Below, piece by piece: positions 5,969-26,750 of a DNA stretch of 29,439 nt (the stretch's first letter is position 1; every line of letters starts with the position of its first letter). Made by a program: the position numbers and the translations under genes. Source of the DNA: an uncultured Pseudomonadota bacterium (GTDB lineage: Bacteria > UBA10199 > JADFYH01); the NCBI GenBank assembly GCA_964609335.1, contig CAZSRQ010000013.1, forward strand, positions 1 to 29,439. Reading direction: 5' to 3'. Under the pieces are notes generated by a model. That model was not told where the DNA came from. It ran no database searches and worked only from the letters and a program-made list of their open reading frames with translations.

Positions 5969-6032
5969 ATTGAATCCCTTTCTTAAATGTGGACAAAGCG
6001 CAGCCTGTCCAGCCTACATTTTGTATAAAGAA

Positions 6033-6839
6033 TTACAAACTAATCGAAGTGACCCCATCCAACGAATGATTTAAAAAAATTTTTCCAACCTCTTTGAATC
6101 TTTGAGGTGAATCGGTCACGAAAAAAGTGATCGAACGATCAGCGGGATCGGTTCTTTCCATTTTTTTATCTTTCAATAACCTTTTTACCGCTTGGGCAGT
6201 TTCAGCAGCACTGTCGACCAGCTTCACTTTTTCACCGATGATTTTTGAGATGACTTTTTTTAAAAGGGGATAATGGGTACATCCCAAAATCAGGGAATCG
6301 ATCGGGGTTTTGAAAAATGGGGAAAGATATTTTTGAACCACCAGCTCCGTCACTTCATTTTCAATCCATCCCTCTTCTACTAACGGGACGAAAAGTGGAC
6401 AGGCAACTCCCCAAGTTCGAATATCAGGATTAATCTTTTGGATCGCCTTGGTATACGCAGCGCTGGAGATGGTTGATTCAGTTCCGACAATTCCGACTTC
6501 TCCCGATTGAGTCGCGGCGAGAGCCGCTTTTACTCCAGGTTCTATCACTCCAATCATTGGGATGGAAAATTTTTTCTGCAACTCATCGAGAGCAAGAGCG
6601 GAAGCGGTATTGCAGGCAACCACAATCGCTTTGACCCCGGTTTGAACCAAGAAATGACTGTTTTCAATCGAATATTTGGTGATCGTTTCACGACTTTTAT
6701 TTCCGTAGGGAACTCGGGCAGTATCTCCCAGATAAACCAGATGTTCATCAGGCAATGCTTCTTCGAGCGCTTTAAAAACGGTAAGTCCGCCGATGCCGGA
6801 GTCAAAAATTCCAATTGCTTTATTTGAATCAGAGGTCAT
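6033..6839 (-). CDS. murI: Glutamate racemase MurI
   Basis: IGIFDSGIGGLTV, VYLGDTARVPYG, ACNTAS and GCTHYP motifs include both catalytic Cys residues. Confidence 0.9.
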   Translation of the reverse strand: MTSDSNKAIGIFDSGIGGLTVFKALEEALPDEHLVYLGDTARVPYGNKSRETITKYSIENSHFLVQTGVKAIVVACNTASALALDELQKKFSIPMIGVIEPGVKAALAATQSGEVGIVGTESTISSAAYTKAIQKINPDIRTWGVACPLFVPLVEEGWIENEVTELVVQKYLSPFFKTPIDSLILGCTHYPLLKKVISKIIGEKVKLVDSAAETAQAVKRLLKDKKMERTDPADRSITFFVTDSPQRFKEVGKIFLNHSLDGVTSISL

Positions 6840-6874
6840 GCGGGAGTAGTGTAGAGGCGCACGGCCAAGCGACT

Positions 6875-7237
6875 CTATCTTTTGGCTTTTTTTGCCGGTT
6901 TACGAGTTTTAGAAGGAGATTTTTTTCTGAGGCTTTTGGTGACCCGTTTTCGGTTGAGCGTTTCAATTTCATTTTCAAGTCGGTGAATTTTTCTTTCCAT
7001 TCCCGATAAAGTATCGCTGGTCGGGATTTCGAGCATTTTCAGGATGAGATTCAGATTGTGATGCAGACTTTTCTCAACCCCTGATTTGGCATTGAGAATA
7101 CTAACGATTCCTTCGACGAACATTTTATTTTTTAGGAGTTGGTTGATAAATCTTGATTGGAGCAGCTCATCGATGAATCGCGCCTTAATTTTTTCGCCCC
7201 GTTCTGCAGCATCTTTTAAGAAATCTTGAAACGTCAT
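6875..7237 (-). CDS. Phasin-like (PHA granule-associated) small coiled-coil protein with a lysine-rich tail
   Basis: A 120-aa helical protein. The MTFQDFLKDAAERGEK... N-terminus and the RKIHRLENEIETLNRK C-terminal heptad resemble the phasin family. KK/KR-rich C-terminus. Assignment is tentative. Confidence 0.45.
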   Translation of the reverse strand: MTFQDFLKDAAERGEKIKARFIDELLQSRFINQLLKNKMFVEGIVSILNAKSGVEKSLHHNLNLILKMLEIPTSDTLSGMERKIHRLENEIETLNRKRVTKSLRKKSPSKTRKPAKKAKR

Positions 7238-7358
7238 GATTTAGGCTCCTTTTACCTGTTTGGGGGAAATCTGAAATAGATTAAGATATTAAAAATTTGT
7301 AACGAAAATAAGAGGCTCTGTCAATCAATCAGTTCACGCATCCATTCATTGACGCTCA

Positions 7359-7388
7359 TTGACTTTTGTTTTTCTTTTGGGAAATAAT
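7359..7388 (+). promoter_or_regulatory. Candidate sigma70-type promoter for tolQ (TTGACT-N18-AATAAT)
   Basis: TTGACT at 7359-7364 and AATAAT at 7383-7388, about 95 nt upstream of the tolQ ATG. Lies in a divergent AT-rich intergenic region. The preceding CATTGAC is duplicated. Confidence 0.3.
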
Positions 7389-7480
7389 AAAAACTTATCC
7401 TTTATTAAAATCGTTAAAGTTTGTAAAATGCTGTAAAAGTTTGATAAAGATTCTCTTTCAAGAAAGGAGTTTTCACTTCC

Positions 7481-8194
7481 ATGTCTCTTCTAACCATTTT
7501 GCTTCAGATGCAGGTCCCCGATATGAAAGATCAGAGTGTTCTTCATCTGATGTTCTCGAGTGATCCCATCGTTAAAGTCACCTTACTCATTCTCATTTTT
7601 TTCTCCATTATGACTTGGGCGATTATTTTCTATAAGTATCGCCAAGTAAAAAAGGCAAAATCGACCTCTTCAAAATTTATCCAGCTTTTTGAAAGTACCG
7701 ATTCCATCGATGAAGTGTTAACGCATGCCCAATCGAGAGAAGGACCGCTTTACGGAATTTTTTCATCCGGTATTTCCGATATTATAAAAAGTCGAAAAAT
7801 TCGGAGCAAAGATCCTTCGGCTCCCATCAAATTAAATCTGGAACATATTCGTAAAAATATTCTTCGGGCAACCAGTGATGAGATCGCGAAATTGGAACAG
7901 ATGACTCCGTTTCTTGCGACGACCGCTTCTGCCTCTCCATTTATCGGTCTTTTTGGAACCGTTTGGGGGATTTTGACCGCCTTCTGGGCGATTGGTCGGG
8001 CAGGCTCCACCTCACTGGGAACTGTAGGGCCATTCATCGCGGAAGCGTTGATTGCAACGGCAGTCGGGCTTGCAGCAGCTATTCCAGCGGTTATTGCGTA
8101 CAACTATTTCGTGAGCAAAACCAAAAATCTCACCAAAATCTTGGATGATTTTTCCATTGATTTGGTTCACCGAATTGAAAGAGAGTATTTCTAG
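7481..8194 (+). CDS. tolQ: Tol-Pal system protein TolQ (MotA/TolQ/ExbB proton channel)
   Basis: Three predicted TM helices and a conserved C-terminal region (GLFGTVWGIL.AF..IG). Followed by tolR, tolA and tolB. Confidence 0.85.
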   Translation: MSLLTILLQMQVPDMKDQSVLHLMFSSDPIVKVTLLILIFFSIMTWAIIFYKYRQVKKAKSTSSKFIQLFESTDSIDEVLTHAQSREGPLYGIFSSGISDIIKSRKIRSKDPSAPIKLNLEHIRKNILRATSDEIAKLEQMTPFLATTASASPFIGLFGTVWGILTAFWAIGRAGSTSLGTVGPFIAEALIATAVGLAAAIPAVIAYNYFVSKTKNLTKILDDFSIDLVHRIEREYF

Positions 8195-8283
8195 TGCTTG
8201 TTCCATCTAACTTTCCCCCTCTCGATGTAAAAATATGAAATGGATGACAAGCCGTGGTGTCGTGACCTTAATATCAAAATAAA

Positions 8284-8742
8284 ATGGAAAGGGTGTTAAT
8301 GGCTTTTTCAAACTCTCAAGATCGTCGTAGCTATTCAACCTTGGCAGAAATCAATATTACTCCGCTGGTTGACGTCATGCTGGTTCTGCTGATTATTTTC
8401 ATGATTACTGCTCCTTTGATGATGGAGGGGGTGAAAGTCGATCTCCCTTCCGCGACAACCCAGGCGATGAAAAATGACAAAGAAGATGTCGTGTTAACTG
8501 TCACAAAAAGTGGAGATCTTTTTCTTCAGGGAGATAAAAGCACCTACAATCTTTCCAATCTCACCGAAAAACTGGTAGCGGTGTATCAAAACAAATCCAA
8601 AAAGGATATTTTCCTTCGGGCAGACAAAACAGTCCCCTATGGTATTGTGGTCCAAGTGATGGCAACGTGTAAAAATGCTGGCATTGAGCGAATCGGCATG
8701 ATTACTGAAACCGATGCCCAACCGAAAGATTCTCCCCTCTAA
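8284..8742 (+). CDS. tolR: Tol-Pal system protein TolR (ExbD/TolR family)
   Basis: LAEINITPLVDVMLVLLIIFMITAP TM helix with the conserved Asp. An alternative ATG at 8299 (MAFSN) has a better SD (AGGGTG) and may be the true start. Confidence 0.85.
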   Translation: MERVLMAFSNSQDRRSYSTLAEINITPLVDVMLVLLIIFMITAPLMMEGVKVDLPSATTQAMKNDKEDVVLTVTKSGDLFLQGDKSTYNLSNLTEKLVAVYQNKSKKDIFLRADKTVPYGIVVQVMATCKNAGIERIGMITETDAQPKDSPL

Positions 8743-9586
8743 GAAACAAGATCTGTTGACAATGGAAAAACAATTTCTTTCAGAAAAGAAGATTTATACC
8801 CGCTTTATTGGCTATTCATTTGCGTTGCATCTGTTTCTTTTTTTGTTTTTTTTGATTGTTTCGGTTTTCCAACAAAAAGTGATTTCTCCTGAAAAGGAGA
8901 TTATGTGGGTTCAGTTGGGATCTTCTGGTACTCAAGAAGGTTTACCGATCAAAGAGTCAAAAACTCTTCCGAAAACCACAATTGAAGAGCAGAAAAAAGC
9001 AAAAGAAGAACAACCGCCTCCAAAACAGGTCAAAAAAGAGGAATCGAAAGTGAATAAAGAGGTAAAGCAGAATGTAAAAGAGAAGGTGGCGATTCAAGAT
9101 AAAAACAAAAAACCTAAAAAAGAAGAAAAGAATGAGATGAAAAAGGAGGAGGTAAAACCCTCCAAGGAAGATTCAAAAATCAAAGAGGCACTGAAAAAAA
9201 TCAATGAAGATCTGAAAGAAAAATCGGTTCCTCCTGAAGCTGCCCAGGCAAAGCAGGGTGGATCTGGGGATCCGGCCGGTAATCCGGAAAAAGGGGGAAG
9301 TAATTCCGAATGTGGAAGATATTCTGCCCGAGTAAGACAGAGAATTGTGAGCAACTGGATTCGGTTGATCGGGTCGAATCGACCTCCACGTTCTCCAAAA
9401 ATTTCGGTGATGATCAACGCGAATGGGGAAATTATTTCAACTCCGCAATGGATTCAAAAGTCGGGAGATTATTCTTTGGATGCATCGACCTTACGAGCGG
9501 TGCAAACTTCTTCTCCCTTTCCGCCTCCTCCAGTCGATTGCCAGGAAGCGGTGAAAGAAGGATTTGTGGTGGTTTTTGGAAAATAA
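8714..9586 (+). CDS. tolA: TolA-like protein: N-terminal TM anchor, K/E-rich linker, TonB-C-type C-terminal domain
   Basis: TM helix (FALHLFLFLFFLIVSVF), then a long KEE/KK low-complexity linker. C-terminal domain RYSARVRQRI..NW..........I.V.I..NGEI has a TonB_C-like fold. Its position between tolR and tolB favours TolA over TonB. Alternative start at 8762 (MEKQF). Overlaps the tolR end by 29 nt if started at 8714. Confidence 0.7.
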   Translation: MPNRKILPSKKQDLLTMEKQFLSEKKIYTRFIGYSFALHLFLFLFFLIVSVFQQKVISPEKEIMWVQLGSSGTQEGLPIKESKTLPKTTIEEQKKAKEEQPPPKQVKKEESKVNKEVKQNVKEKVAIQDKNKKPKKEEKNEMKKEEVKPSKEDSKIKEALKKINEDLKEKSVPPEAAQAKQGGSGDPAGNPEKGGSNSECGRYSARVRQRIVSNWIRLIGSNRPPRSPKISVMINANGEIISTPQWIQKSGDYSLDASTLRAVQTSSPFPPPPVDCQEAVKEGFVVVFGK

Positions 9587-9595
9587 TCGGAAGAA

Positions 9596-9680
9596 GAATT
9601 CAGGAGACAGAAATCAGAAGATAGAATAAAAAAATTTTATTCTTCATTCTTCTGACTCCTGATTTCTGTCTCCTGAATTC
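9596..9680. repeat. Long hairpin between tolA and tolB: 22-bp perfect stem, about 41-nt AT-rich loop
   Basis: GAATTCAGGAGACAGAAATCAG (9596-9617) is the exact reverse complement of CTGATTTCTGTCTCCTGAATTC (9659-9680). The left arm extends to 9620 and the right arm carries a 7-nt CTCCTGA insertion. Confidence 0.8.
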
Positions 9681-9708
9681 TGTATTATAAAGTCATGAAA
9701 GGTCACTT

Positions 9709-11010
9709 ATGAAAAAACATCTTATCCTCTTTTTTATTCTCAATCTTTTTTTGATTTCCGCTGCCCAAGCGAAAATTTATATTTATGTTGATCAGCCAAG
9801 TCCCGAAAGAAAATTTCCGATTGCGGTTCCTGATTTGGTGAATCTAAAAGGAGGAGAGAAAGATGATTTGCTCACAAAAATTCCCGATGTTTTAAGAAAC
9901 GATCTAAAGCTCGCCGGATATTTTCAGGTTCTAAACAAATCGACCTATCTTGAAAATCCAGGGCCGGGGCTCATCTCCCAAGAGATTGATTTCAAAAAAT
10001 GGACGGCGATTGAAGCGAATGCGTTGGTCAAGGGAGGGATTGCAGTCGATGGCAAAAACATCACGCTTCAATTCAGGCTTTTTGATCCGTACACCGGAGA
10101 AATGCTTGTCGGTAAAGAATATAAGGTCGACAGAAACAATTACCGTGCAGCCGTTCATCGCTTTATGGATGAAGTGATGCTTGCTCTCACCGGAGAAAAA
10201 GGGGTTTTCTCGACGAGAATTACCGCCGCTTGCGGAAAAATCGGAAAACGCGAAATTTTTGTGATGGATGTCGATGGTGGAAATATGTCAGCCATTACGA
10301 ATAATCAGTCGATTAACGTTTCCCCTTCGTGGTCTCCCGATAATTCACAAATCGCTTTTACTTCTTATTCAAAATATTTTCCTGAAATTTTTACGATTCC
10401 TTCGAGTGGAAAGGGAAAACCGAAACGGATCACTTTTAACAATTCAATGAATATCACGCCCGCTTGGGCTCCTGATGGAAGCGCGATTGCCATTTCGAGC
10501 AGCATGTCGGGTGATCCGGAGCTTTATCTGATTGATGCACAGGGAAATAAACTGGCGCAACTAACCCGGAGTTTTGGAATTGATCTGAATCCAACCTGGT
10601 CTCCCGATTCGCAGCATCTCATTTTTGCCTCTGAACGGGCCGGGAATTTGCATCTATTTTCCATGGATCGGAAGGGTGGAAACACAAAAAGACTTACTTT
10701 TGTCGGCTATCAAAATGATCAACCCGACTGGTCTCCCAAGGGAGACAAAGTTGCTTTCAGTAGTCGTGACAGCGGAAATTTTGATATTTTTACCATGAAT
10801 GCCGATGGATCGATGATTCAACGTTTGACCAGTGGATCAGGCAACAATGAATCCCCCAGCTTTTCCCCGGATGGACGATATATTGTTTATACCAGCACAC
10901 GCGGTTATCGAAGCGATGTCTTTATCATGCTTTGGGATGGATCGAATCAAACCCGAATTACTCAAACCGGTGATTGTGTCAATCCAGATTGGTCGAATTG
11001 GATGAATTAA
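9709..11010 (+). CDS. tolB: Tol-Pal system beta-propeller protein TolB
   Basis: Signal peptide, N-terminal TolB domain, then repeated [PS][ST]WSPDG.x.[IV][AV][FY]-type blades: SWSPDNSQIAF, PAWAPDGSAIA, PTWSPDSQHLIF, PDWSPKGDKVAF, PSFSPDGRYIVY. Confidence 0.9.
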   Translation: MKKHLILFFILNLFLISAAQAKIYIYVDQPSPERKFPIAVPDLVNLKGGEKDDLLTKIPDVLRNDLKLAGYFQVLNKSTYLENPGPGLISQEIDFKKWTAIEANALVKGGIAVDGKNITLQFRLFDPYTGEMLVGKEYKVDRNNYRAAVHRFMDEVMLALTGEKGVFSTRITAACGKIGKREIFVMDVDGGNMSAITNNQSINVSPSWSPDNSQIAFTSYSKYFPEIFTIPSSGKGKPKRITFNNSMNITPAWAPDGSAIAISSSMSGDPELYLIDAQGNKLAQLTRSFGIDLNPTWSPDSQHLIFASERAGNLHLFSMDRKGGNTKRLTFVGYQNDQPDWSPKGDKVAFSSRDSGNFDIFTMNADGSMIQRLTSGSGNNESPSFSPDGRYIVYTSTRGYRSDVFIMLWDGSNQTRITQTGDCVNPDWSNWMN

Positions 11011-11014
11011 AAAT

Positions 11015-11977
11015 ATGAATTACGCCACGATCGACATAGGGAGTAATACCGTCCTGCTTCTGATCGCCTCGATCGGAAAAGAAGGGGAGATTATTCCTCT
11101 GCTTGAAAAAGCGGAAATTACCCGTTTGGGTCAGTCGCAAAGTCAAAGCCCTGCCGACGCTTCTTTCCGTGCGTTACATCCTGAAGCGATGGAGAGAACT
11201 CTCAAGGTTTTACGTCAGTATACCGATTTATGTCATCGAAATCAGGTCGAAGGAATTGCCTGTATCGGAACCGAAGCACTTCGCCGAGCCTACAACTCCA
11301 ATACTCTGGTTCGTCAAATCGAGGATAGCTGTGGTTTTAAGGTCGAGATTATCCCCGGAAAAAAAGAGGCGGAGCTTGCTTATTTGTCAGCGATGCTTGA
11401 TTTCAGGGAAGTTTATCCAAATCTGGTGGTTGTAGATATTGGAGGTGGATCGACTGAGTTGATTTGGGAAACCGAAACCACCGAAAGTCGCGCGAAGCTT
11501 CAGATGATTTCGATGAAAATGGGATCGGTTCGACTGACCGAGCGATTTATCAAGAGTGATCCGATCAGTTCTGAAGAATTTGATTATCTTTCTGATTTGA
11601 TTGAGACGAAATTGAATGAGGATCTGGCAATTTTGCCACTTCCAAAACATCCGCTCACCCTGATTGGACTGGCAGGAACGGTGACCACCTTGTCTTCGAT
11701 GGCTCAAAAGTTGAAAACCTATGATTCAAAAAAAGTTCAAGGTTCTACTTTGACCCTTTCTCAATTAGAAAAAACGATTGAAGGGTTGAAAAAGAAAAAC
11801 CTCGAAGAAAAAAAACAGATCGTTGGCATTGAACCGAAACGAGCCGATGTGCTGCTTGCGGGAGCGATGATTCTCGAGGCGGTGATGAAAAAATTCAAGG
11901 CGAAGCAGGTAGTGGTGAGCGATCACGGAATTCGCTACGGGCTTTTTTACCAGCGGTTTATGACTCGTCCTCGTTAA
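11015..11977 (+). CDS. ppx: Ppx/GppA family exopolyphosphatase / guanosine pentaphosphate phosphohydrolase
   Basis: N-terminal ATIDIGSNTVLLLIA and VVDIGGGSTEL phosphate-binding motifs of the ASKHA Ppx/GppA fold. Has only the two N-terminal domains (320 aa). Confidence 0.85.
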   Translation: MNYATIDIGSNTVLLLIASIGKEGEIIPLLEKAEITRLGQSQSQSPADASFRALHPEAMERTLKVLRQYTDLCHRNQVEGIACIGTEALRRAYNSNTLVRQIEDSCGFKVEIIPGKKEAELAYLSAMLDFREVYPNLVVVDIGGGSTELIWETETTESRAKLQMISMKMGSVRLTERFIKSDPISSEEFDYLSDLIETKLNEDLAILPLPKHPLTLIGLAGTVTTLSSMAQKLKTYDSKKVQGSTLTLSQLEKTIEGLKKKNLEEKKQIVGIEPKRADVLLAGAMILEAVMKKFKAKQVVVSDHGIRYGLFYQRFMTRPR

Positions 11978-12146
11978 CCGGATTTGTCTCCGAATTCCTG
12001 TTTTCTTTATCCGGAATTGCATACTCTTCGGAGGCCCATTTTCCCAAATCAATCAAACGACATCGTTCGCTACAAAATGGCTTGTGAGGATTGTTTTCCC
12101 AGGTAGTTTCTTTTTTACAATAAGGGCATTTGATTTGTTTTGGCAT
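11958..12146 (-). CDS. yacG: DNA gyrase inhibitor YacG (zinc-finger)
   Basis: CPYC....W.NNP..PFCSERCRLIDLGKWASEEY is the YacG zinc-ribbon signature. 62 aa. Its 3' end overlaps the ppx stop by 20 nt; the two genes are convergent. Confidence 0.85.
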   Translation of the reverse strand: MPKQIKCPYCKKETTWENNPHKPFCSERCRLIDLGKWASEEYAIPDKENRNSETNPVNEDES

Positions 12147-12178
12147 AAAAAAGTAATGGATGCGACCGTGTGGCCAAT

Positions 12179-14143
12179 TTATTCGCTTCTCGGTCGATCA
12201 ACCGAAAGATAAGTATATCCTCTTAAATTTTCTTCATAGAGATCAATCAGATTGACCCCTTCTTTTGGCTTGATGAGTCCATCGCGAACCTGTTGATCGA
12301 GGGCGGTCTTGATTTTTCTGGCCAGATCAGTCGGGGCATATTGAAGTCGGGAAAGTACCTGTTCTACGGTATCTCCCGGAATTATCTCTTCGAGATAAAA
12401 ATCTTCGGGATCTTCATCATCGCAAAAAACATGCACTTCATTCACGCGGCCAAAGAGATTATGCATATCTCCCATGATATCCTGGTAAGCGCCGAGGAGG
12501 AACATGCCAATAAAATAAGGTTCTCCCGGTTTTAGCGTATGCAGGCTTAAGGTATTTTTCACATCGATTAAATCGATAAAACGGTCGATTTTTCCATCAC
12601 TATCGCAGGTAATATCGACAATCGTCGACTCCCGGGATGGAGCTTCATCGAGCCGATGAACCGGAACGATCGGAAAAAGCTGGTCAAACGCCCAATGATC
12701 GGGGGCAGTTTGAAAGAGACTAAAATTTACGAGATCTTGATCGGCCATTAAATCAGGGAGATTTCCGATATCTTCGGGGACATGTTTGAGGTTTTGCGTC
12801 AGTTTGATAATCGCCCGACAGATCTGCCAGAAAAGACTTTCAACTTTGGCGCGATCTTCCAGTTCCAAAATTCCGAGCTTGAACATCGAAAGAGCTTCCT
12901 CTTTTTTGGCGACGGCGTGGTGAAAAGATTCTAAAACATTTTTGCTGTTCAGATTATTGACCAGTTTTCTCGTTTTTTTGACAATATCTGCTTCCTTGAT
13001 TTTTTCAGGTTTTTCATTGCTGCTGGTGCCATTCGAGCCGATTTCAATATTTCCGAAGACCGGCATGATAATACAGGAGTGATGCGCGGTAATGGCACGG
13101 CCGGATTCGCTGACAATACAAGGTTCAGAGACCGATTCGTCCTGGCAGATCTGTTGAATGTTATAAACGACGTCGCTGGTGTATTCATCCAAAGTATAAT
13201 TCATGGATGAGGTGCCGGTCGTTCGCGACCCATCGTAATCTACTCCAAGCCCGCCACCGATATCAAAATAGTCGATTTCAAATCCCATCTTTTTCAGTTT
13301 TGCGTAGATGCGGGTTCCTTCGCGAATCGCATCTTTCAAGGTTCCGATGTCAGTGATCTGGCTTCCGACATGAAAATGAAAAAGTTTCAAACAAGATTCT
13401 TGATTGCTTTCCTTTAACATCTGAACCGCGCGGATCAGTTCTGGCGTGGTTAAGCCAAATTTGGCGAAATCCCCGCCGCTGCTTTCCCACTTGCCGGTTC
13501 CTTTGGTAGTTAGCTTTGCTCTTAGCCCGATCAGCGGTTCGACCTGCATCTCTTTGGCAATTTCTAAAAGATGGGGAAGTTCGGAAAGTTTTTCGATGAC
13601 GACAATAATTTTTCTACCAAGTTTGCGACCGAGCATCGCCAGTCGCATATAATTTTCATCTTTATAACCATTGCAAATGGTGAGTGCTTCGGGATCGTTG
13701 TTCAATGCCAGCACCGGCATTAATTCCCCTTTGCTTCCCGCCTCCAAGCCAAAGTGATAGGGGGCACCAGCATCCAGAATTTCTTCCACCACTTCTCGCA
13801 TCTGATTGACCTTGATCGGGTAAACGCCGAGATATTTGTTTTGGTAGCTATGATCTAGAATTGATTTTTTAAAAGATTCGTTGAGAGCGATGACGCGAGA
13901 ACGAAGAATATCTTGAAAACGAATGACGCAGGGAAATCCGATTTTTTTTTCCTGGATATCGTCAACGACATCCATAATATCGATCGATGGGCCCTCTCGA
14001 CCATACGGCTGAACGCAGAGATGACCGCGGTCGTTGACAAAAAAATAGCCTGATCCCCAATTTTCAATATTATAATGCTGAATTGCCTTGGCGACTGACC
14101 AATCGGGATCGACATCTGGTTTTAGATTATGTAAGGTGACCAT
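12179..14143 (-). CDS. speA: Biosynthetic arginine decarboxylase SpeA
   Basis: 654 aa. N-terminal YNIENWGSGYFFVNDRGHLCVQP. PLP-fold-III motifs: GVYPIKVNQ (Lys) and GGGLGVDY. Length and architecture are typical of SpeA. Confidence 0.9.
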   Translation of the reverse strand: MVTLHNLKPDVDPDWSVAKAIQHYNIENWGSGYFFVNDRGHLCVQPYGREGPSIDIMDVVDDIQEKKIGFPCVIRFQDILRSRVIALNESFKKSILDHSYQNKYLGVYPIKVNQMREVVEEILDAGAPYHFGLEAGSKGELMPVLALNNDPEALTICNGYKDENYMRLAMLGRKLGRKIIVVIEKLSELPHLLEIAKEMQVEPLIGLRAKLTTKGTGKWESSGGDFAKFGLTTPELIRAVQMLKESNQESCLKLFHFHVGSQITDIGTLKDAIREGTRIYAKLKKMGFEIDYFDIGGGLGVDYDGSRTTGTSSMNYTLDEYTSDVVYNIQQICQDESVSEPCIVSESGRAITAHHSCIIMPVFGNIEIGSNGTSSNEKPEKIKEADIVKKTRKLVNNLNSKNVLESFHHAVAKKEEALSMFKLGILELEDRAKVESLFWQICRAIIKLTQNLKHVPEDIGNLPDLMADQDLVNFSLFQTAPDHWAFDQLFPIVPVHRLDEAPSRESTIVDITCDSDGKIDRFIDLIDVKNTLSLHTLKPGEPYFIGMFLLGAYQDIMGDMHNLFGRVNEVHVFCDDEDPEDFYLEEIIPGDTVEQVLSRLQYAPTDLARKIKTALDQQVRDGLIKPKEGVNLIDLYEENLRGYTYLSVDRPRSE

Positions 14144-14207
14144 CTGAAATTTAATTGAATCATTCAGGCGAGATTGTCAACAGAACAGTATCGTTTTCAG
14201 GGGAAAA

Positions 14208-14474
14208 ATGGGCTCTCAAAATACCCTCCATAAAATAGAAGAAGTTTTGCGTGAAAAATTGCAACCGGTTTCGCTGCAAATCAAGGATGATAGCGCCAAA
14301 CATGCGGGGCATGTCGGGGCAAGATCTGGAAAAGGGCATTTTCAGGTTGAAATTGCTTCCCCTCTTTTCGAAGGGAAAAGTTTGATTGAACAGCATCGAA
14401 TGGTGAATGAAGCTTTAAGAGAGTTGTTAGAAACGGAGATTCATGCGTTGCAGTTGAAAACGAGTATTGGGTAA
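14208..14474 (+). CDS. bolA: BolA/IbaG family protein
   Basis: 88 aa. HAGH.......GHFQVEI.S..F.GKS...QHRMVN..L......IHAL.L.T is the BolA signature. Confidence 0.8.
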   Translation: MGSQNTLHKIEEVLREKLQPVSLQIKDDSAKHAGHVGARSGKGHFQVEIASPLFEGKSLIEQHRMVNEALRELLETEIHALQLKTSIG

Positions 14475-14489
14475 AATCCAAAATTAATT

Positions 14490-14546
14490 CAGGGGGATTC
14501 CTGTTCGCCTGCTGCGAAGCACGGCGTTTGCAGGAATGACAATACT
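14490..14546. repeat. Isolated internal module of the family-B repeat (CAGGGGGATTCCTG...GCAGGAATGACAATAC)
   Basis: Matches the internal segment CAGGGGGATTC(T)CCTGCCTGCC..GGCACGGCG..GGAATGACAGTA of the elements at 21547-21715 and 24943-25104. It lacks their terminal inverted repeats. Confidence 0.5.
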
Positions 14547-14549
14547 CTT

Positions 14550-15569
14550 ATGCGTCCAAGAATTGTTTCGTTAATTGCGAGTAGTACTGAAATTGTCTGT
14601 GCGCTTGGTTTCTATGGTCATCTGGTTGGCAGATCCCACGAATGTGATTTTCCACTTTCAGTCAAAAGTCTTCCGGTTTGTACCGAACCAAAATTCAACA
14701 TCGATGGAAATAGTTATGAAATTGATCAGCGAGTGAAAGCAATCCTCCAAGAAGGGCTTTCTGTTTACCGCGTTCATGCCGATCAGCTTAAAAAATTAAA
14801 ACCCGATCTGATTGTGACCCAGGTTCAATGTGAGGTTTGCGCGGTGAGTGAGAAGGATGTCGAAGAAGCGGTTTGTCAGCTGGTCGACTCCAAGCCGAAA
14901 ATTGTTTCCTTGAATCCGAATTCATTGAAAGATCTTTGGGAGGATATCCGAAAAGTGGCAACAGCGCTGAATGTGATTCCTAAAGGGGAAGAGGTGATTG
15001 CGGATTTGAAAGCGAGGATGAGTATAATTTCTCAGAAGATACAAGAAAATTTTTCTAAAGGTGTTTCATTAGATAAATCCCCCCAGCCCCCTTTGCTAAA
15101 GGGGGAGACAGCAATACCCCCCTTTGAAAAAGGGGGGCTGGGGGGGATTTCTTCCACTCGTCCCACGGTTGCCTGCATTGAATGGATCAATCCGCTGATG
15201 TCGTGTGGAAACTGGCTTCCAGAGCTGGTTGAAATGGCGGGTGGAATCAATCTTTTTGGCGAGGCAGGAAAACATTCTCCCTGGATGACGTTTGAAGATC
15301 TGCTCCAAAAAAATCCCGATATCCTGATTGTTTTGCCCTGTGGATTTGATATTCCGAAAACGAGAGAAGAGATGCATTGGCTGACCGACAATCCCAACTG
15401 GAAAAAACTGAAAGCGGTTCAAAACAAAAAAGTTTTTTTGGCGGATGGAAATCAGTATTTCAATCGCCCGGGTCCGCGAGTTGTCGAATCGTTGGAGATC
15501 TTGGCAGAAATTTTTTATCCGACTCTTTTTAATTTCGGACATCACAAGAAAGCATGGGAAGAATGCTAG
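14550..15569 (+). CDS. Cobalamin/Fe-siderophore-type ABC substrate-binding protein (BtuF/class III SBP-like) with an in-frame repeat-derived insertion
   Basis: N-lobe motifs (RIVSLIASSTEIVCALG, KPDLIV). The inter-lobe motif RPTVACIEWINPLMSCGNWLPELVEMAGG is typical of the BtuF family. No signal peptide is evident. Codons 176-201 (KSPQPPLLKGETAIPPFEKGGLGGIS) are encoded by a palindromic repeat. Confidence 0.7.
   Translation: MRPRIVSLIASSTEIVCALGFYGHLVGRSHECDFPLSVKSLPVCTEPKFNIDGNSYEIDQRVKAILQEGLSVYRVHADQLKKLKPDLIVTQVQCEVCAVSEKDVEEAVCQLVDSKPKIVSLNPNSLKDLWEDIRKVATALNVIPKGEEVIADLKARMSIISQKIQENFSKGVSLDKSPQPPLLKGETAIPPFEKGGLGGISSTRPTVACIEWINPLMSCGNWLPELVEMAGGINLFGEAGKHSPWMTFEDLLQKNPDILIVLPCGFDIPKTREEMHWLTDNPNWKKLKAVQNKKVFLADGNQYFNRPGPRVVESLEILAEIFYPTLFNFGHHKKAWEEC
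15075..15150. repeat. Family-A palindromic element (compact 76-bp variant) inside the SBP coding sequence
   Basis: AAATCCCCCCAGCC [CCCCTTTGCTAAAGGGGG] AGACAGCAATA [CCCCCCTTTGAAAAAGGGGGG] CTGGGGGGGATTT. Two internal hairpins are enclosed by an outer inverted repeat. The CCCCCTTTGAAAAAGGGGG hairpin also occurs in the copies at 1208, 20815 and 26625. Confidence 0.75.
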
Positions 15570-16732: not shown

Positions 16733-16756
16733 CGGTTTAAAATCTTGAATCGCTAA

Positions 16757-16913
16757 ATTAATCGTAACTACTCAGGTTCCTCAATAAATTTTATACAAAT
16801 GGGACATGGTGAGCTTGTCGAACCATCACTCCAGTGCACTCAATTGATGGTTCGACTCCGTTGCACTACGCTCACCATGTCCCTATTGGATGCCTGAACA
16901 GTTACAATTAATC
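16757..16913. repeat. Family-B-related palindromic element (TIR AATTAATCGTAACTACTCAGG / CCTGAACAGTTACAATTAATC) with nested internal palindromes
   Basis: The left terminus GTAACTACTCAGG is identical to the termini of the elements at 21547 and 24943. The interior GGGACATGGTGAGC...GTCGAACCATCA...TGATGGTTCGAC...GCTCACCATGTCCC forms nested inverted repeats. Lies between the convergent antiporter and NUDIX genes. Confidence 0.7.
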
Positions 16914-16924
16914 AATTAAAACTA

Positions 16925-20799: not shown

Positions 20800-20814
20800 A
20801 ATTCCAAGGATGTT

Positions 20815-20925
20815 TCCTCCCTTTGGAAAAGGGAGGTTAGGAGGGATTTAGTGCAACCAAACCTTAAGAAGTGCTCAACTCCTAGCACTAAATCCCCCTT
20901 AATCCCCCTTTTCCAAAGGGGGAGA
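20815..20925. repeat. Family-A palindromic element (full-length, ~110 bp)
   Basis: CCTCCCTTTGGAAAAGGGAGG-TTAGGAGGGATTTAGTGCAACC ... CCTAGCACTAAATCCCCCTTAAT-CCCCCTTTTCCAAAGGGGG. Terminal hairpins plus GGATTTAGTGC / GCACTAAATCC internal inverted repeats. Confidence 0.8.
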
Positions 20926-20978: not shown

Positions 20979-21572
20979 ATGAATCTTCAAAAATTAAATC
21001 TCAAAATTTTTATCGCAAATCCTGAAACGGTTCAGTTTGAAACTTTCATCCCGATTTTTCATCGCTGGATTCAGGAACAGAATATGAGTGATCTGTTGCT
21101 CGATGTGGCAGATTATCAACATGTGCCTTCCGGCCCAGGGATTATGCTGATCGCCCAGAATGCGAACTACAGTATTGATAATGCGCAGAACCGGTTGGGA
21201 TTTCTCTATAATCAAAAAACAGTTCTTGAAGGAAATAATCCCGATAAACTGAAAAAACTTTTTCAAACGACTTTGTTGACTTGTCAAAAGCTTGAACAAG
21301 AGGAAACTTTGAAAGGAAAGTTGAAATTTTTAACCAATGAGATGCAGTTCATTCTCAACGATCGTTTAAATGCTCCGAATACCGAAGAGACTTTTCAGAA
21401 AGTAAAAGGGGAAATTTCTTCTTTCTTGAATTCTTTTTTTGGTGAGAACAATTATTCACTTCATCGTCATTCCGACCCGCGCGAGAGATTTACGCTGGAG
21501 ATTAAAACTTCCGCCTCTTTTTCTTTGGATGAGCTCTTAAAAAAAAGTAATTACTCAGGTTATTCCAGATGA
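20979..21572 (+). CDS. Hypothetical protein (197 aa, no recognisable domain)
   Basis: Good SD (AAGGAAA) 8 nt upstream of the ATG. Coding-like composition. The last 8 codons (SNYSGYSR) and the stop codon lie inside the left terminus of the family-B repeat. Confidence 0.5.
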   Translation: MNLQKLNLKIFIANPETVQFETFIPIFHRWIQEQNMSDLLLDVADYQHVPSGPGIMLIAQNANYSIDNAQNRLGFLYNQKTVLEGNNPDKLKKLFQTTLLTCQKLEQEETLKGKLKFLTNEMQFILNDRLNAPNTEETFQKVKGEISSFLNSFFGENNYSLHRHSDPRERFTLEIKTSASFSLDELLKKSNYSGYSR

Positions 21573-21715
21573 TTGTCATCCCCGAGTGTTTTTATCGGGG
21601 ATCCCCCTACTCAAATATTGGATCAGGGGGATTCTCCTGCCTGCCTGCCGGCAAGGCACGGCGCCCAAAAGCCTACGGGAATGACAGTACTATTTTGGAT
21701 CAGCTGAGTAGTTAC
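21547..21715. repeat. Family-B palindromic element, copy 1 (~169 bp; TIR GTAATTACTCAGG / CAGCTGAGTAGTTAC)
   Basis: About 85-90% identical to 24943-25104 and in the same orientation. Internal hairpins: CCCCGAGTGTTTTTATCGGGG, ATCCCCCT...AGGGGGAT, TGTCAT...ATGACA. Confidence 0.8.
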
Positions 21716-21920
21716 AAAAAATAAATAAAATTTTTTTTATCGAGTAGAGCTGTAGTGTCCCCTCATCCCTCTTCTACCGAACGAAGAGCGTTCTTGAGTT
21801 AATTTTAAATTTTCCATCAATCAAAAGACAAATTTTGGTTGGATAAAATAAAAAGTTCTATATACTCCCATTCCATTCGAGGATTTCTAACCCAATCATT
21901 TTAACTAAAACCAAAGAAGT

Positions 21921-23369
21921 TTGTTGAAAGCAAAAAGCGGTGCTCGCACTATGGGATCTCTCCCGCCAGTTCATGCGTTGCTTCACTCTGCCGTCCAAGC
22001 GACCTCTCCGGTCGAACGTTTGTCTGATCTGGCTGGAAAGCCGATCGCCTGGGGCTGGCCCGCTTCTGTCTCTGCCAATTCTCTGGGGAGTATCGAAAAA
22101 GTGGGGATGGCCCAAGTGATAAAACCTTCTTCCAATCGGGCACTCGCAACCATTTTTTCCCGAGAGACCGGAAAGGGGATTTTTTTTTCAGGCAGAGTCA
22201 ATCTTCCGATTTCTCCGTTGGTCATTGGAGCAGTTGTTTGTGGAGTTGCCTTGCTGATTGCGTACGAGGTTTTCAATGAAAAATATCGGTCGCACATTTA
22301 TGAAGATCCGATTCACTCTTCGCAAACATTCATTCGAGATCCGGCAGAGGGTTCAGTCTTTTCGTTTATTTTTCCAGCTTTTGAAATCGCCTCGTTTCTG
22401 AGTCCCGATCCTGAATCGGATTCTTCCGATGATTTGAATGGCGAGAGATATATTTTTCCAACAGAATCTTCGAAAGTTGATCCGGTGAATGAAATCGGGT
22501 TTGATTCATCCCAGAAAATTTATTTGACGAGTGGAATGGTGCAGATACCACTCGAAGAGCAGGATACCGCCCCGATCAGGATTATCAAAGATGAGGCAAC
22601 AGGAGTCGAAATCAGGATTATGCGGGAACATGGAAAGGAAATTGTGGTGATCCAGGGAGGAATTCTTTTGGCCGATGTCCTGAAAAAATATCTTTCCGAG
22701 TTGATCATTCCCAATCATGCAGCCGGTCTCATCGAGAGAGCGAAAGTTGAAGCGGAACAGCAAAGGGTTTCCCATCTCTTCTCTCCATCCGAGGAGCAGA
22801 TTCCTGATATTGCCGCACACCATTTCCATCCCTTGACGGCGCAGGGAAATATTGCCCATTTTCATATTCCCGGAAATGTCGATCCGTGCGAAATGAGATA
22901 CGGGATTTTTTATCCGACAAAAAACTCTTTGGGAGATGCCTCATACCACCTTTATATTCCTCTCTTTCAACCAGAGATCGATCGCGATCTGTTTCAACTG
23001 TTTATAAGAATTGTCGGTCTTGTTTTCATGGAAGAATCGGTGAAAGCCGGTGTTTTTTCTTCCACACAACCGCGAAACCGGTTCGTGCAAAAAAGTGCAA
23101 CCGAATTTGAATGGATGGATCTGATTTTCGGACAAATTCTTTCTTCCGATAAAATCCTGCCGACGATCGACCGTTCGATCCGGGATATCCAGTCGCAAGA
23201 GACGTCAAAAACAGATGCCAAAAAAGTCGGTTTTGACAAGGTGTTGAAGATTTCTTTTTTATGGCATCTTCATGAAAAGGCAGAGGAGGAAAGATTTGCC
23301 GCACTGGCATTGCTCAGGGGATTGATCGCCAGAGGGAGATTGATGATTGTAAAGCCGATTCGGCAATGA
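21921..23369 (+). CDS. Hypothetical membrane-anchored protein (482 aa; one TM helix then a ~360-aa domain of unknown function)
   Basis: The tracked ORF begins at a TTG. Candidate ATG starts are 21951 and 22107. One hydrophobic helix (LVIGAVVCGVALLIAY). The first ~200 nt are markedly more GC-rich than the surroundings. Histidine-rich patch HHFHPLTAQGNIAHFHIPG. No known family recognised. Confidence 0.5.
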   Translation: MLKAKSGARTMGSLPPVHALLHSAVQATSPVERLSDLAGKPIAWGWPASVSANSLGSIEKVGMAQVIKPSSNRALATIFSRETGKGIFFSGRVNLPISPLVIGAVVCGVALLIAYEVFNEKYRSHIYEDPIHSSQTFIRDPAEGSVFSFIFPAFEIASFLSPDPESDSSDDLNGERYIFPTESSKVDPVNEIGFDSSQKIYLTSGMVQIPLEEQDTAPIRIIKDEATGVEIRIMREHGKEIVVIQGGILLADVLKKYLSELIIPNHAAGLIERAKVEAEQQRVSHLFSPSEEQIPDIAAHHFHPLTAQGNIAHFHIPGNVDPCEMRYGIFYPTKNSLGDASYHLYIPLFQPEIDRDLFQLFIRIVGLVFMEESVKAGVFSSTQPRNRFVQKSATEFEWMDLIFGQILSSDKILPTIDRSIRDIQSQETSKTDAKKVGFDKVLKISFLWHLHEKAEEERFAALALLRGLIARGRLMIVKPIRQ

Positions 23370-23400
23370 AGATCATTCAACGATTCATCTTTTGGTGAGC

Positions 23401-23823
23401 TCAGGACTGAATATACCGTTTAAGCTGGATATTCTCATCCTCGATTTCTTCAACGATCCACTCCAGGATATTTCTCATCGTGACCACTCCAACCACTTTT
23501 GTTCCATCGACAATCGGAATATGCCGACATCGGGTCTCTTCCATTTTTTTGAAACAGTTTTGGGTCGTTTCATCGATCGGCACGGTTGTAATATTTTTCG
23601 ACATCACTTCCGAGAGGGCTGTTTTTTCCGGGTCAAGATTTTTGGCGACGACCCGATTGAGAAGATCCCGCTCGGTAAAGATGCCTGTGAGCTGATCGTT
23701 ATCCATCACGAGAATGCTTCCGATCGAGCGGGAAACCATCGTTTTTACCGCTTCCAAAACCGTCGATTTTGAGGGAAGAGTCACGATTTTTTGGGATTTG
23801 ACCAAAGTTTGTAAAAGACTCAT
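23401..23823 (-). CDS. CBS-pair domain protein
   Basis: Two CBS motifs (ILVMDNDQLTGIFTERDLL and HIPIVDGTKVVGVVTMRNIL). 140 aa. Confidence 0.8.
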   Translation of the reverse strand: MSLLQTLVKSQKIVTLPSKSTVLEAVKTMVSRSIGSILVMDNDQLTGIFTERDLLNRVVAKNLDPEKTALSEVMSKNITTVPIDETTQNCFKKMEETRCRHIPIVDGTKVVGVVTMRNILEWIVEEIEDENIQLKRYIQS

Positions 23824-23917
23824 AAAAAAGTCCTTGTCTTTAAAGGGTTAAAATTTGCATAAACAACCGTCATCCATAGTCTAACAAAATCGGAATCAAA
23901 AAGTAAGGATCAGAGTT

Positions 23918-24919
23918 ATGCTGGAAAATTATTATTACTGGATCGGAATGGGAGTGGTCGGGGTTTTGATTGTCATGGTTCTTTTCCTGATTTTCAAAAA
24001 AAGCAGGAAAAAAACGGAGGATGCGCCGCTCACGGCCGGACTCAAAAAAACCCATGCAAATTTTTCCGCCAAAATTGATGAAATGCTTGGTCGACGTTCC
24101 AAGATCGATGGAGAGATTTTTTCCAGGCTCGAAGAAATTTTGCTGGAGGCAGATGTCGGGGTAAAAACAACGCAAAAGCTTCTTCAATCGATTACACAAG
24201 ATATTACGAAATCGGGAAAACAGGATATCCGGATGCTGAAAGGTTTTCTCAAACAAGAGTTGCTGAAGTTGTTGACGGAAGATCCCCCGACAAAAAATTG
24301 TCCGGAAATTCCCAAAGTCATTTTGGTGGTCGGGATTAACGGGGTTGGCAAAACCACCACCATCGGAAAACTGGCAAAAAGATTCCGTTCGAAAGGGGAT
24401 AAAGTTTTACTCGCTGGCGCAGACACTTTCCGGGCTGGGGCAGTCAGCCAGTTGAAAGTCTGGGCGGAGAGAGTCGGGGCTCAAACGCTTTCCCAAAATG
24501 ATGGAGCCGATCCCGCTGCGGTCTCCTACGATGCGGTCAAGGCGGCGACTGCCCGTGGCATGGAGGTGGTGGTGATTGATACTGCCGGAAGATTGCATAC
24601 CAAAATCAATCTGATGGAAGAGATGAAAAAAATAAAACGGGTGATCGGCAAGGCGAAAGAAAATGCCCCGCATGAAATTTATCTGGTGGTGGATGCAACC
24701 ACCGGTCAGAACGCCCTGATGCAGGCGCGAGAATTCAATGAGGCGCTCGGATTAACCGGCATCATCCTCACCAAGCTCGATGGAACTGCCAAGGGGGGAA
24801 TTGTCGTTGCCATCCATGATGAGTTGAAGGTTCCAATCCGTTATATTGGCGTGGGAGAAAGAATTGATGATCTGAAAGAGTTCAATGCAAAAGAGTTTGT
24901 CGATGCCTTGTTGAATTAA
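23918..24919 (+). CDS. ftsY: Signal recognition particle receptor FtsY
   Basis: N-terminal TM anchor. NG domain with [15 protein letters not shown] (G1), DTAGR (G3), TKLDG (G4). Confidence 0.9.
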
Positions 24920-24924
24920 AAACG

Positions 24925-25132
24925 CACGTTACGCGATTTTTTGTAACTACTCAGGTCATTCCCAATGATTGTCATCCCCGAAGGTTTTTTCGGGGATCCC
25001 CCTACTCAACAATTGAATGAGGGGGATTCCCCTGCCTGCCGGCAAGGCACGGTGCCCAAAAGCCTGCAGGAATGACAGTAATTTTGGACGAGCTGAGTAG
25101 TTACAAAAAAATTACAAAAAATCGCGTAACGT
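24925..25132. repeat. Family-B palindromic element, copy 2, nested inside an additional outer inverted repeat
   Basis: Core 24943-25104 (GTAACTACTCAGG...GAGCTGAGTAGTTAC). It is enclosed by CACGTTACGCGATTTTTT (24925-24942) and its reverse complement AAAAAATCGCGTAACGTG (25115-25132). Starts 6 nt after the ftsY stop. Confidence 0.8.
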
Positions 25133-25243
25133 GACTTAAAAATAAAACTTTGATTCTTAAAAAAAAATTATGCTACCATCCCTCCACACATAAAAAATCC
25201 GGCGTTTTTGGTGAATCTTCACATTTTCCTTGGAGGGGGGATT

Positions 25244-26047
25244 ATGGCAACGATTACTAACTCAACGGCGATACAAACATTGTCACTGTTGAGATCGAGT
25301 GGCATTCTTGGATTTGAAAAACTCCCATTGTCATCACCATCCTCTCTTGAAATTGAAAAAGATAAAGCGAACTACTATCTGTTTCGTCTCAGTTTACTCG
25401 GCGCCAATCAGACTCGTGGAATCATAGACTCGCAAGATTTGCAGGCGGTGAATACCGCTTTGCAAGAAAAAGGAAAAAAACCGTTATCTGAAAGACAAAT
25501 CCTCAATCTGGCGGGGGAGTTTCAAAGAAAATTTGGTGTTTCATTTCCGATGCAACTTTCAAATGGAAGACTCTGGGATCCTGCCAAAATCAAAGATCCA
25601 TCCCAGCAAGAAATCCAGAATTTAGCCCAAGCGTTGCAGGGCAACTCTATTGGTCCCGAAAGGCAAGTCATTACAATTCATAAAACCCCTGATCATGAAC
25701 GCGATACTACCGTTCTTCGCAAAACCGATATTCTTCTCACCTTTCTTCAAAATTCAGGGCTCGCCCAAAAAGATGGAGAGATGATCGCTTGGATAAAACC
25801 GGAGGAGGTAATTTCGATTCAGGCCGATTTTCATCATCATTCCAGCTTAAGGCAAGGGTTTGAGGTAGATGGAAAAACGGTTGTTTATCGAATTGTCTAT
25901 GAGGAAAAAGGTTCAAAAGAGAGTAAGTGGTTGGAGGTTGAGGTAAAATCTTTCGCTGAATATCAACGCGATCCAAATGCCAATGGTTATCTGAAAATAC
26001 TCGCGAAAAAAACCGAAGAGTTGATAAAACCGAAATTGAAGCTTTGA
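25244..26047 (+). CDS. Hypothetical protein (267 aa, soluble, no recognisable domain)
   Basis: Start placed at ATG 25244 (MATITNS), with strong SD GGAGGGG 5 nt upstream. The tracked ORF starts at an upstream TTG (25208). No TM or signal peptide. Confidence 0.5.
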   Translation: MATITNSTAIQTLSLLRSSGILGFEKLPLSSPSSLEIEKDKANYYLFRLSLLGANQTRGIIDSQDLQAVNTALQEKGKKPLSERQILNLAGEFQRKFGVSFPMQLSNGRLWDPAKIKDPSQQEIQNLAQALQGNSIGPERQVITIHKTPDHERDTTVLRKTDILLTFLQNSGLAQKDGEMIAWIKPEEVISIQADFHHHSSLRQGFEVDGKTVVYRIVYEEKGSKESKWLEVEVKSFAEYQRDPNANGYLKILAKKTEELIKPKLKL

Positions 26048-26600: not shown

Positions 26601-26624
26601 AAAGTTTCATTTCCTCAGGGCAGA

Positions 26625-26750
26625 ACCCCCCTTTGAAAAAGGGGGGCAGGGGGGATTTAGTGCAACTTGTGGTAGAGAAAGATCAATTTTTCAAAACTGC
26701 AAACTCTATCTAATAAATCCCCCTAATCCCCCTTTTTCAAAGGGGGAGAA
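26625..26750. repeat. Family-A palindromic element (full-length, ~125 bp)
   Basis: CCCCCCTTTGAAAAAGGGGGG-CAGGGGGGATTTAGTGCAAC ... TAATAAATCCCCCTAATCCCCCTTTTTCAAAGGGGGAG. Its right end encodes the last 8 codons and the stop of the aquaporin gene. Confidence 0.8.

Follow-up and report, generated by a model that had tools for sequence, protein, structure and literature searches.

The subject of this analysis is a contig of 29,439 nt from an uncultured Pseudomonadota bacterium (CAZSRQ010000013.1; the whole of this stretch is called the window), in which two direct copies of a short, hairpin-rich repeat, copies A and B, lie on either side of a block of three genes that ends with ftsY, and a third element, element C, lies at some distance from them. 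We are highly confident that these repeats are MITEs (miniature inverted-repeat transposable elements) that carry the ends of the ISBst12 group of the IS66 family and that each of them inserted independently beside a resident housekeeping block. The elements and their flanking duplications are as follows.

16756-16763 and 16906-16913: perfect 8-bp duplication of element C, AATTAATC
16764-16905, plus strand: third MITE (element C), 142 bp, of a different subfamily, GTAACTACTCAGG ... CCTGAACAGTTAC
21539-21546, unstranded: left target-site duplication of copy A, AAAAAAAA
21547-21715, plus strand: MITE copy A, 169 bp, left terminus GTAATTACTCAGG, right terminus GCTGAGTAGTTAC
21716-21723, unstranded: right target-site duplication of copy A, AAAAAATA, matching its left partner at 7 of 8 positions
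24943-25104, plus strand: MITE copy B, 162 bp, same subfamily and orientation as copy A

Copies A and B both start with GTAAYTACTCAGG and end with GCTGAGTAGTTAC, and in a global alignment they share 147 identities over 169 columns (87%, or 90.7% without gaps). This agrees with an earlier note on this DNA, which had described two copies about 85-90% identical in the same orientation, with GTAA-type termini and several internal hairpins. The interior of copy A consists of GC-rich hairpins and the predicted fold of both copies is a long imperfect hairpin; for single-stranded DNA the folding energy is -31.1 kcal/mol (z = -4.2) in copy A and -59.4 kcal/mol (z = -11.3) in copy B taken together with an outer palindrome that encloses it (described below). 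Element C had been noticed as well, with a different interior and identical termini. Its left end is indeed that of A and B and its interior is unrelated to theirs, but its right end, CCTGAACAGTTAC, has 2 mismatches, and the span of 16757-16913 originally assigned to it, which roughly took in both 8-bp duplications, has been corrected to that given above. Matches to the 13-nt terminus GTAAYTACTCAGG with at most 2 mismatches number seven in the window against 0.41 expected, a count reached by none of 100 shuffles, and six of the seven are the ends of the three elements, all within 2 mismatches of GTAACTACTCAGG. There is no coding capacity for a transposase in A, B or C; the only long open reading frame (ORF) that overlaps any of them is the upstream gene, whose tail runs into copy A.

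Evidence that the elements have moved comes from relatives of the window. Three contigs encoding homologues of the 472-aa protein of the bracketed block (L117, L118 and L119) and two recovered through near-identical neighbour proteins (L201 and L202) can be aligned with the window, the nucleotide identity being 82-91%, and no such terminus is present on any of them. The genes that matter for this comparison are listed here.

20979-21572, plus strand: upstream ORF of 197 aa, no Pfam match, its last 8 codons and stop (21570-21572) inside copy A
21951-23369, plus strand: bracketed gene 1, hypothetical protein of 472 aa (482 aa from an upstream TTG), no Pfam match
23401-23823, minus strand: bracketed gene 2, CBS-domain protein of 140 aa
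23918-24919, plus strand: bracketed gene 3, ftsY, signal-recognition-particle receptor GTPase (SRP54_N and SRP54)

The protein collection contains no more than three further homologues of the 472-aa protein, of which two are 80% identical, and the gene order NIR_SIR, hyp191, hyp472, CBS (minus strand), ftsY is common to the window and its relatives. Copy A is absent from L117, L118, L119 and L201; its site measures 73 nt in L118 and L119 versus about 260 in the window and holds a different insert of about 200 nt in L117 and L201. Homology with L117 is regained just past copy A's right duplication, at TAAAATTTTTTTT. Copy B starts 23 nt past the ftsY stop codon, and in L118, the only relative that covers this site, 9 nt replace window positions 24923-25131. 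The MITE at the element C site is absent from L201. Given that the sites are free of elements in relatives with the same gene order, A and B represent independent insertions and not the two ends of a composite transposon; they belong to one subfamily that entered two separate intergenic sites either side of hyp472-CBS-ftsY, after the lineage had diverged from these relatives of 82-91% DNA identity. Alignment of the upstream ORF, which ends in ...LLKKSNYSGYSR before its stop codon in the window and is a 191-aa protein ending in ...LLKRVE in the relatives, indicates that copy A rewrote its last codons.

Other variation was seen in the same comparison. The copy A spot exists in three states (window 21544-21801; L118 175-247; L117 4291-4493 and L201 7071-7272), the L117 insert carrying a hairpin, TCATTCTGAGCGGAGCGAAGAATC...GATCCTTCACTTCGTTCAGGATGA, and the L201 insert being of the same length; this intergenic spot appears to be an insertion hot spot. 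At the element C site, L201 has an RDD-family gene (1616-2320) between a Na+/H+ exchanger and a NUDIX gene, where the window (16733-16924) has only the MITE. A 790-aa gene with Xre-type helix-turn-helix (HTH) domains lies between hyp471 and CBS in L118 (1846-4218) and L119 (2196-4568) and is absent from L117 and from the window (site 23389-23396).

The same ends recur far outside this lineage. When one genome of each species was scanned for GTAAYTACTCAGG followed after 115-145 nt by CTGARYAGTTAC, at least 116 elements were among the matches listed, where by our own arithmetic (3.7e13 positions, strands and gap lengths times 7e-15) about 0.3 would be expected by chance. The earlier note had held that an identical, repeat-free gene order without rearrangement in related genomes, together with a lack of additional copies elsewhere, would refute its interpretation; the relatives do show that gene order and no repeats, and additional copies do exist. 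Among the listed elements 114 could be tested for target-site duplications: the 8-nt flanks are identical in 64 and differ by at most one mismatch in 78, whereas a shifted control gave 0 elements with one mismatch or fewer. The length is exactly 8 bp, as flanks of 5-7 or 9-11 nt give almost no matches, and the target sites are AT-rich (70% A+T, roughly VWWWWWWB) in loci that are 49% G+C (51% A+T) overall. A check for such duplications had been proposed in the earlier note, and its outcome is positive across the family; in the window it is 8 of 8 positions for C, 7 of 8 for A and none for B. With sites free of these elements in relatives and 8-bp duplications across the family, the view that these are small, non-coding mobile elements bounded by terminal inverted repeats (TIRs), and that they have moved, is upheld.

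By record title, the metagenome-assembled genomes (MAGs) that host the family belong to the Nitrospirota, Chloroflexota, Cyanobacteriota, Bacteroidota (Saprospiraceae), Desulfobacterota, Gamma-, Beta- and Zetaproteobacteria, Verrucomicrobiota, Elusimicrobiota, Acidobacteriota, Methylomirabilis (Methylomirabilota) and Nitrospinota. Two contigs of one ANME-1 (Methanophagales) MAG add an archaeal host; if the binning of this MAG is right, the family crosses the domain boundary. Its two elements lie at L049 7351-7516, with a perfect CTATATAA duplication, and at L108 1827-1978. Interiors are unrelated between genomes, conservation being limited to the 13-14 terminal bases, and in BLAST comparisons of the window MITE interiors with all other loci similarity ended at 17-18 terminal bases. 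Copies within one MAG (MAGs other than that of the window) are 83-100% identical, which is the pattern expected from lineage-specific bursts. A fixed duplication length, shared ends and genome-specific interiors together make up the signature of MITEs. A literature search for the exact terminus sequence found no match.

The ends point to a transposase family. ISDge4 of Deinococcus geothermalis, a member of the ISBst12 group within the IS66 family for which active transposition has been described, has the TIRs GTGACTACTCAGCA / GTAACTGCTCAGCA and an 8-bp direct repeat, CCTCGATG (PMC12898284). Another element of this group resides on the Geobacillus kaustophilus plasmid pHTA426 (PMC8024623); there, GTATCTATTCAGCCC and GTAACTATTCAGCCC enclose the gene annotated 'IS66-like element ISGka4 family transposase', with GACGAGTT flanking both sides. 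Metagenomic homologues of the pHTA426 transposase are numerous (6173 with E <= 0.001 among 8000 candidates scored), and a scan with an alignment of 16 of its homologues gave 80 metagenomic loci. A terminus pair within 3 mismatches of the MITE terminus was present at 61 of these 80 loci, the two ends lying a median of 1568 bp apart (range 1.5-2.1 kb); at 29 loci there was at most one mismatch at both ends, and five of the 61 were exact at both. Many metagenomic insertion sequence (IS) copies have 12-13 of 13 bases in common with the MITE terminus. At one such locus (L127) the element reads GTAACTACTCAGGC...GCCTGAGTAGTTAC between two copies of CAATATTC, and its ORF of 486 aa contains DUF6444 (PF20042), zf-IS66 (PF13005) and DDE_Tnp_IS66 (PF03050).

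Two agreements place the window elements with this group: (i) their ends match those of autonomous elements encoding DDE_Tnp_IS66, namely ISDge4, the pHTA426 element and those at 61 of the 80 loci; and (ii) the family duplicates 8 bp, as do the parents (GACGAGTT, CAATATTC and CCTCGATG). The elements are not obvious internal deletions of a parent IS, similarity to the full-length ISs stopping after 13-14 nt, and their interiors give the impression of unrelated hairpin sequence to which such ends were added. We considered whether the repeats might themselves be autonomous IS66 insertion sequences and rejected this, since no DDE_Tnp_IS66 ORF lies in or near them. Nor was a transposase seen beside the MITEs in the flanks of the 116 loci, which were examined for orphan termini, TIR pairs more than 250 bp apart and ORFs of more than 100 aa; a search of the MITE loci for an IS66-type motif, CWAH.RR, likewise found nothing.

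In the mechanism that we infer, a single-ORF transposase of about 490 aa (DUF6444, zf-IS66 and DDE_Tnp_IS66), encoded elsewhere in the genome or formerly present there, would act in trans, recognising GTAACTACTCAGG at both ends of an element. Staggered cuts 8 bp apart in AT-rich DNA would then lead to insertion and to the 8-bp duplication. The interiors are best described as family-specific hairpin filler and not as a conserved functional RNA. A and B flank the hyp472-CBS-ftsY block by coincidence, MITEs having inserted densely between genes; the significance attached to the bracketing in the earlier note is not supported, and the same block is found in the same place and order in relatives without the repeats.

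The surroundings of copy B are unusual. As the earlier note reported, copy B sits within a perfect outer palindrome with 18-nt arms (24925-24942 and 25116-25133), and the arms extend to 22 nt when the first bases of the MITE, GTAA, are counted.

24925-24946, unstranded: left arm of the outer palindrome, CACGTTACGCGATTTTTTGTAA, its last 4 nt being the first 4 of copy B
25112-25133, unstranded: right arm of the outer palindrome, TTACAAAAAATCGCGTAACGTG, 7 nt (AAAAAAA) past the end of copy B

The sequence TTACAAAAAA is present twice at the copy B junctions. Neither the rest of the window nor any of 202 loci contains this palindrome, and it is absent from L118, the sole relative covering the site. 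Because the arms include MITE bases, the palindrome probably arose after copy B had inserted, and we conjecture that copying across the MITE hairpin, by fold-back or template switching, produced it. Its uniqueness in the window and among all 202 loci led us to reject a second, nested repeat family as the source of the palindrome. A chromosomal inversion behind the mismatched flanks of copy B was also rejected, as L118 has ftsY and the downstream flank in collinear arrangement.

Several observations weigh against our interpretation of the repeats as independently inserted MITEs with ISBst12-group ends. Copy B has no target-site duplication (its flanks are GATTTTTT and AAAAAAAT), and our interpretation leaves both this lack and the palindrome without explanation. 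Among the full-length metagenomic ISs, a duplication was found in only 8 of 17 that could be tested; chimeric assembly at repeats probably adds to this low count. No transposase was found on the 29-kb contig, so that the trans-acting partner is an inferred one, and A and B differ from one another by 13%. On these last two grounds the suggestion in the earlier note that mobilisation is 'active' is not borne out.

Three other explanations deserve to be weighed against independent MITE insertion. If A, the 3.2-kb block and B formed a composite transposon that moves as a unit by way of its outermost termini, the left terminus at 21547 and the right terminus at 25104 would be the functional pair. 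These do bracket the block, and the outer flanks, AAAAAAAA (21539-21546) and AAAAAAAT (25105-25112), match at 7 of 8 positions, although both are poly-A and carry little information. The idea is scarcely credible when set against the rest of the evidence: in L117, L118 and L201, which are free of MITEs, the block has the same neighbours on either side (NIR_SIR-hyp191 upstream and the same sequence downstream), copy A has a 7-of-8 duplication of its own, and the cargo includes core housekeeping in the form of ftsY. It is also very improbable that the direct repeats serve as a recombination substrate through which the block is deleted, duplicated or inverted, with structural variation as the outcome, as the earlier note had proposed for deletion and inversion. 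Homologous repeats can in principle recombine, and here there are two 87% identical direct copies 3.2 kb apart. However, direct repeats may delete or duplicate the DNA between them but cannot invert it, and the longest perfectly identical run in the global alignment of A and B is only 22 nt, no more than the minimum that efficient RecA-dependent exchange requires in Escherichia coli. Deletion would remove ftsY, a gene that is essential in bacteria studied, and in none of the relatives compared is the block deleted or duplicated, the variation in the 790-aa HTH gene of L118 and L119 not being tied to the repeats.

That the repeats are structured regulatory RNA or DNA elements (terminators, attenuators or REP-like protein-binding hairpins) duplicated for their function is suggested by their strong predicted folding, by their positions, one directly behind the ftsY stop and one spanning the stop codon of the upstream ORF, and by the conservation of an interior-like module in the BolA-PBP spacer of a relative. 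We nevertheless think this very unlikely. Target-site duplications are found, the elements are missing from relatives, and only the 13-14 terminal bases are conserved across the family, around unrelated interiors. Rfam gave no match across the window at gathering thresholds; at E <= 1 over 21400-25300 the sole match was SNORD48 inside ftsY, at a chance-level E of 0.41. In a consensus scan of the region, promoter and terminator sites were no commoner than in shuffled sequence and nothing convincing was seen at A or B: copy A had no terminator-like site and, on the gene strand, neither did copy B, where one terminator-like match fell on the minus strand at the left palindrome arm, within a regional count at shuffle level. 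Secondary exaptation of elements that arrived as MITEs is conceivable.

Interpreting the repeats as MITEs explains three lineage-specific insertions on the contig, one of which alters the C-terminus of a conserved hypothetical protein, and masking them, or annotating them as MITEs, is advisable. It brings neither a new mechanism nor a rearrangement system for the ftsY block. The elements are, on the other hand, natural mini-substrates with a 13-14-nt end for the little-studied ISBst12 group and could help to define what its single-ORF IS66-type transposase needs for recognition. ISBst12-group ends are conserved across very distant hosts, and an identical 13-nt end over so broad a host range is a modest point of interest. 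It is possible, though on balance we lean away from it, that MITEs bounded by GTAACTACTCAGG form an uncatalogued superfamily across phyla and both prokaryotic domains in which unrelated hairpins repeatedly acquired the 13-nt ISBst12 end and were amplified, with the copy B palindrome perhaps recording a linked fold-back or template-switch step.

The window contains other repeats, of which one touches on the origin of the A/B interior.

About 14477-14550, plus strand: hairpin module in the BolA-PBP intergenic region, resembling the 3' interior of A and B and lacking the termini

This module was present as the earlier note had indicated, although the span given for it there (14490-14546) was too short. 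Because a shorter form occurs at the same intergenic position in L202, the module would seem to be an older resident hairpin type of the lineage. The A/B subfamily may have been built from this resident hairpin, as opposed to the spacer being a MITE remnant.

A second and unrelated family of palindromic repeats, about 115 bp long and with arms like TCCCCCTTTGAAAAAGGGGGATTAAGGGGGATTTAGTGC, is found at 1203-1321, 20810-20925 and 26620-26750, with a shorter form at 15073-15161. The repeat at 20810-20925 is absent from L117 and L201, and a Nitrospirota MAG locus (L023) has 37 nt at 92-94% in common with the family. The GC-rich repeat at 15073-15161 lies in frame within a Peripla_BP_2-type ORF (14550-15569), where it encodes ...KSPQPPLLKGETAIPPFEKGGLGGISS..., and in this it recalls the in-frame palindromic elements of Rickettsia; the L202 and L201 contigs, which come from one relative, break exactly at this spot, with a different GC-rich repeat. 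Finally, a 35-nt inverted repeat, 89% complementary, occupies 9595-9681 in the spacer between ORFs 8714-9586 and 9709-11010, and this spacer (9588-9708) is the only stretch in 6006-15021 that does not align with L202.

Of the known small elements, the one to which the repeats had been likened is the Correia element (CREE/NEMIS) of Neisseria. The likeness holds for size (about 100-160 bp), for the possession of TIRs, for the mosaic interior and for an intergenic position near genes. Correia elements create a TA duplication, have 26-nt TIRs and are confined to one genus, and no transposase is known for them. The elements described here, in contrast, duplicate 8 bp, have TIRs of 13-14 nt with an unrelated sequence and can be assigned to a transposase family, that of ISBst12-group, IS66-family ends; we therefore rejected their identification as Correia elements and regard 'Correia-like' as an analogy only. 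With REP/BIME sequences (RAYT, IS200/IS605-like) they have in common that they are extragenic palindromes richer in GC than the genome around them. REPs are not known to have the TIR-plus-duplication architecture of the present elements.

The features expected of MITEs are found in these elements: they are short and non-coding, have TIRs, show a fixed-length duplication (copy B being the exception) and are present or absent at orthologous sites. There is precedent for such elements in bacteria, as in the IS630-related RUP and the IS982-related MITE of Cardinium (PMC9769881), which are likewise short, non-coding and TIR-bounded, duplicate their target as the parent IS family does, occur in multiple, lineage-specific copies within intergenic DNA or at its margins and have a strong tendency to form hairpins. 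The present elements differ in their parent family and in that the same 13-nt terminus surrounds unrelated interiors in many phyla; in the literature searched we found no published description of MITEs with IS66 or ISBst12 ends. With the ISBst12 group itself (ISBst12, ISGka4-like elements and ISDge4) they share a TIR that begins with GTAA and has the core GTAACTACTCAG(G/C), as well as the 8-bp target-site duplication. Members of that group are, however, ISs of about 1.5-1.6 kb that encode a DDE_Tnp_IS66 transposase of about 490 aa, whereas the window elements are 142-169 bp long without an ORF, and are derivatives or end-mimics of this group and not insertion sequences in their own right.

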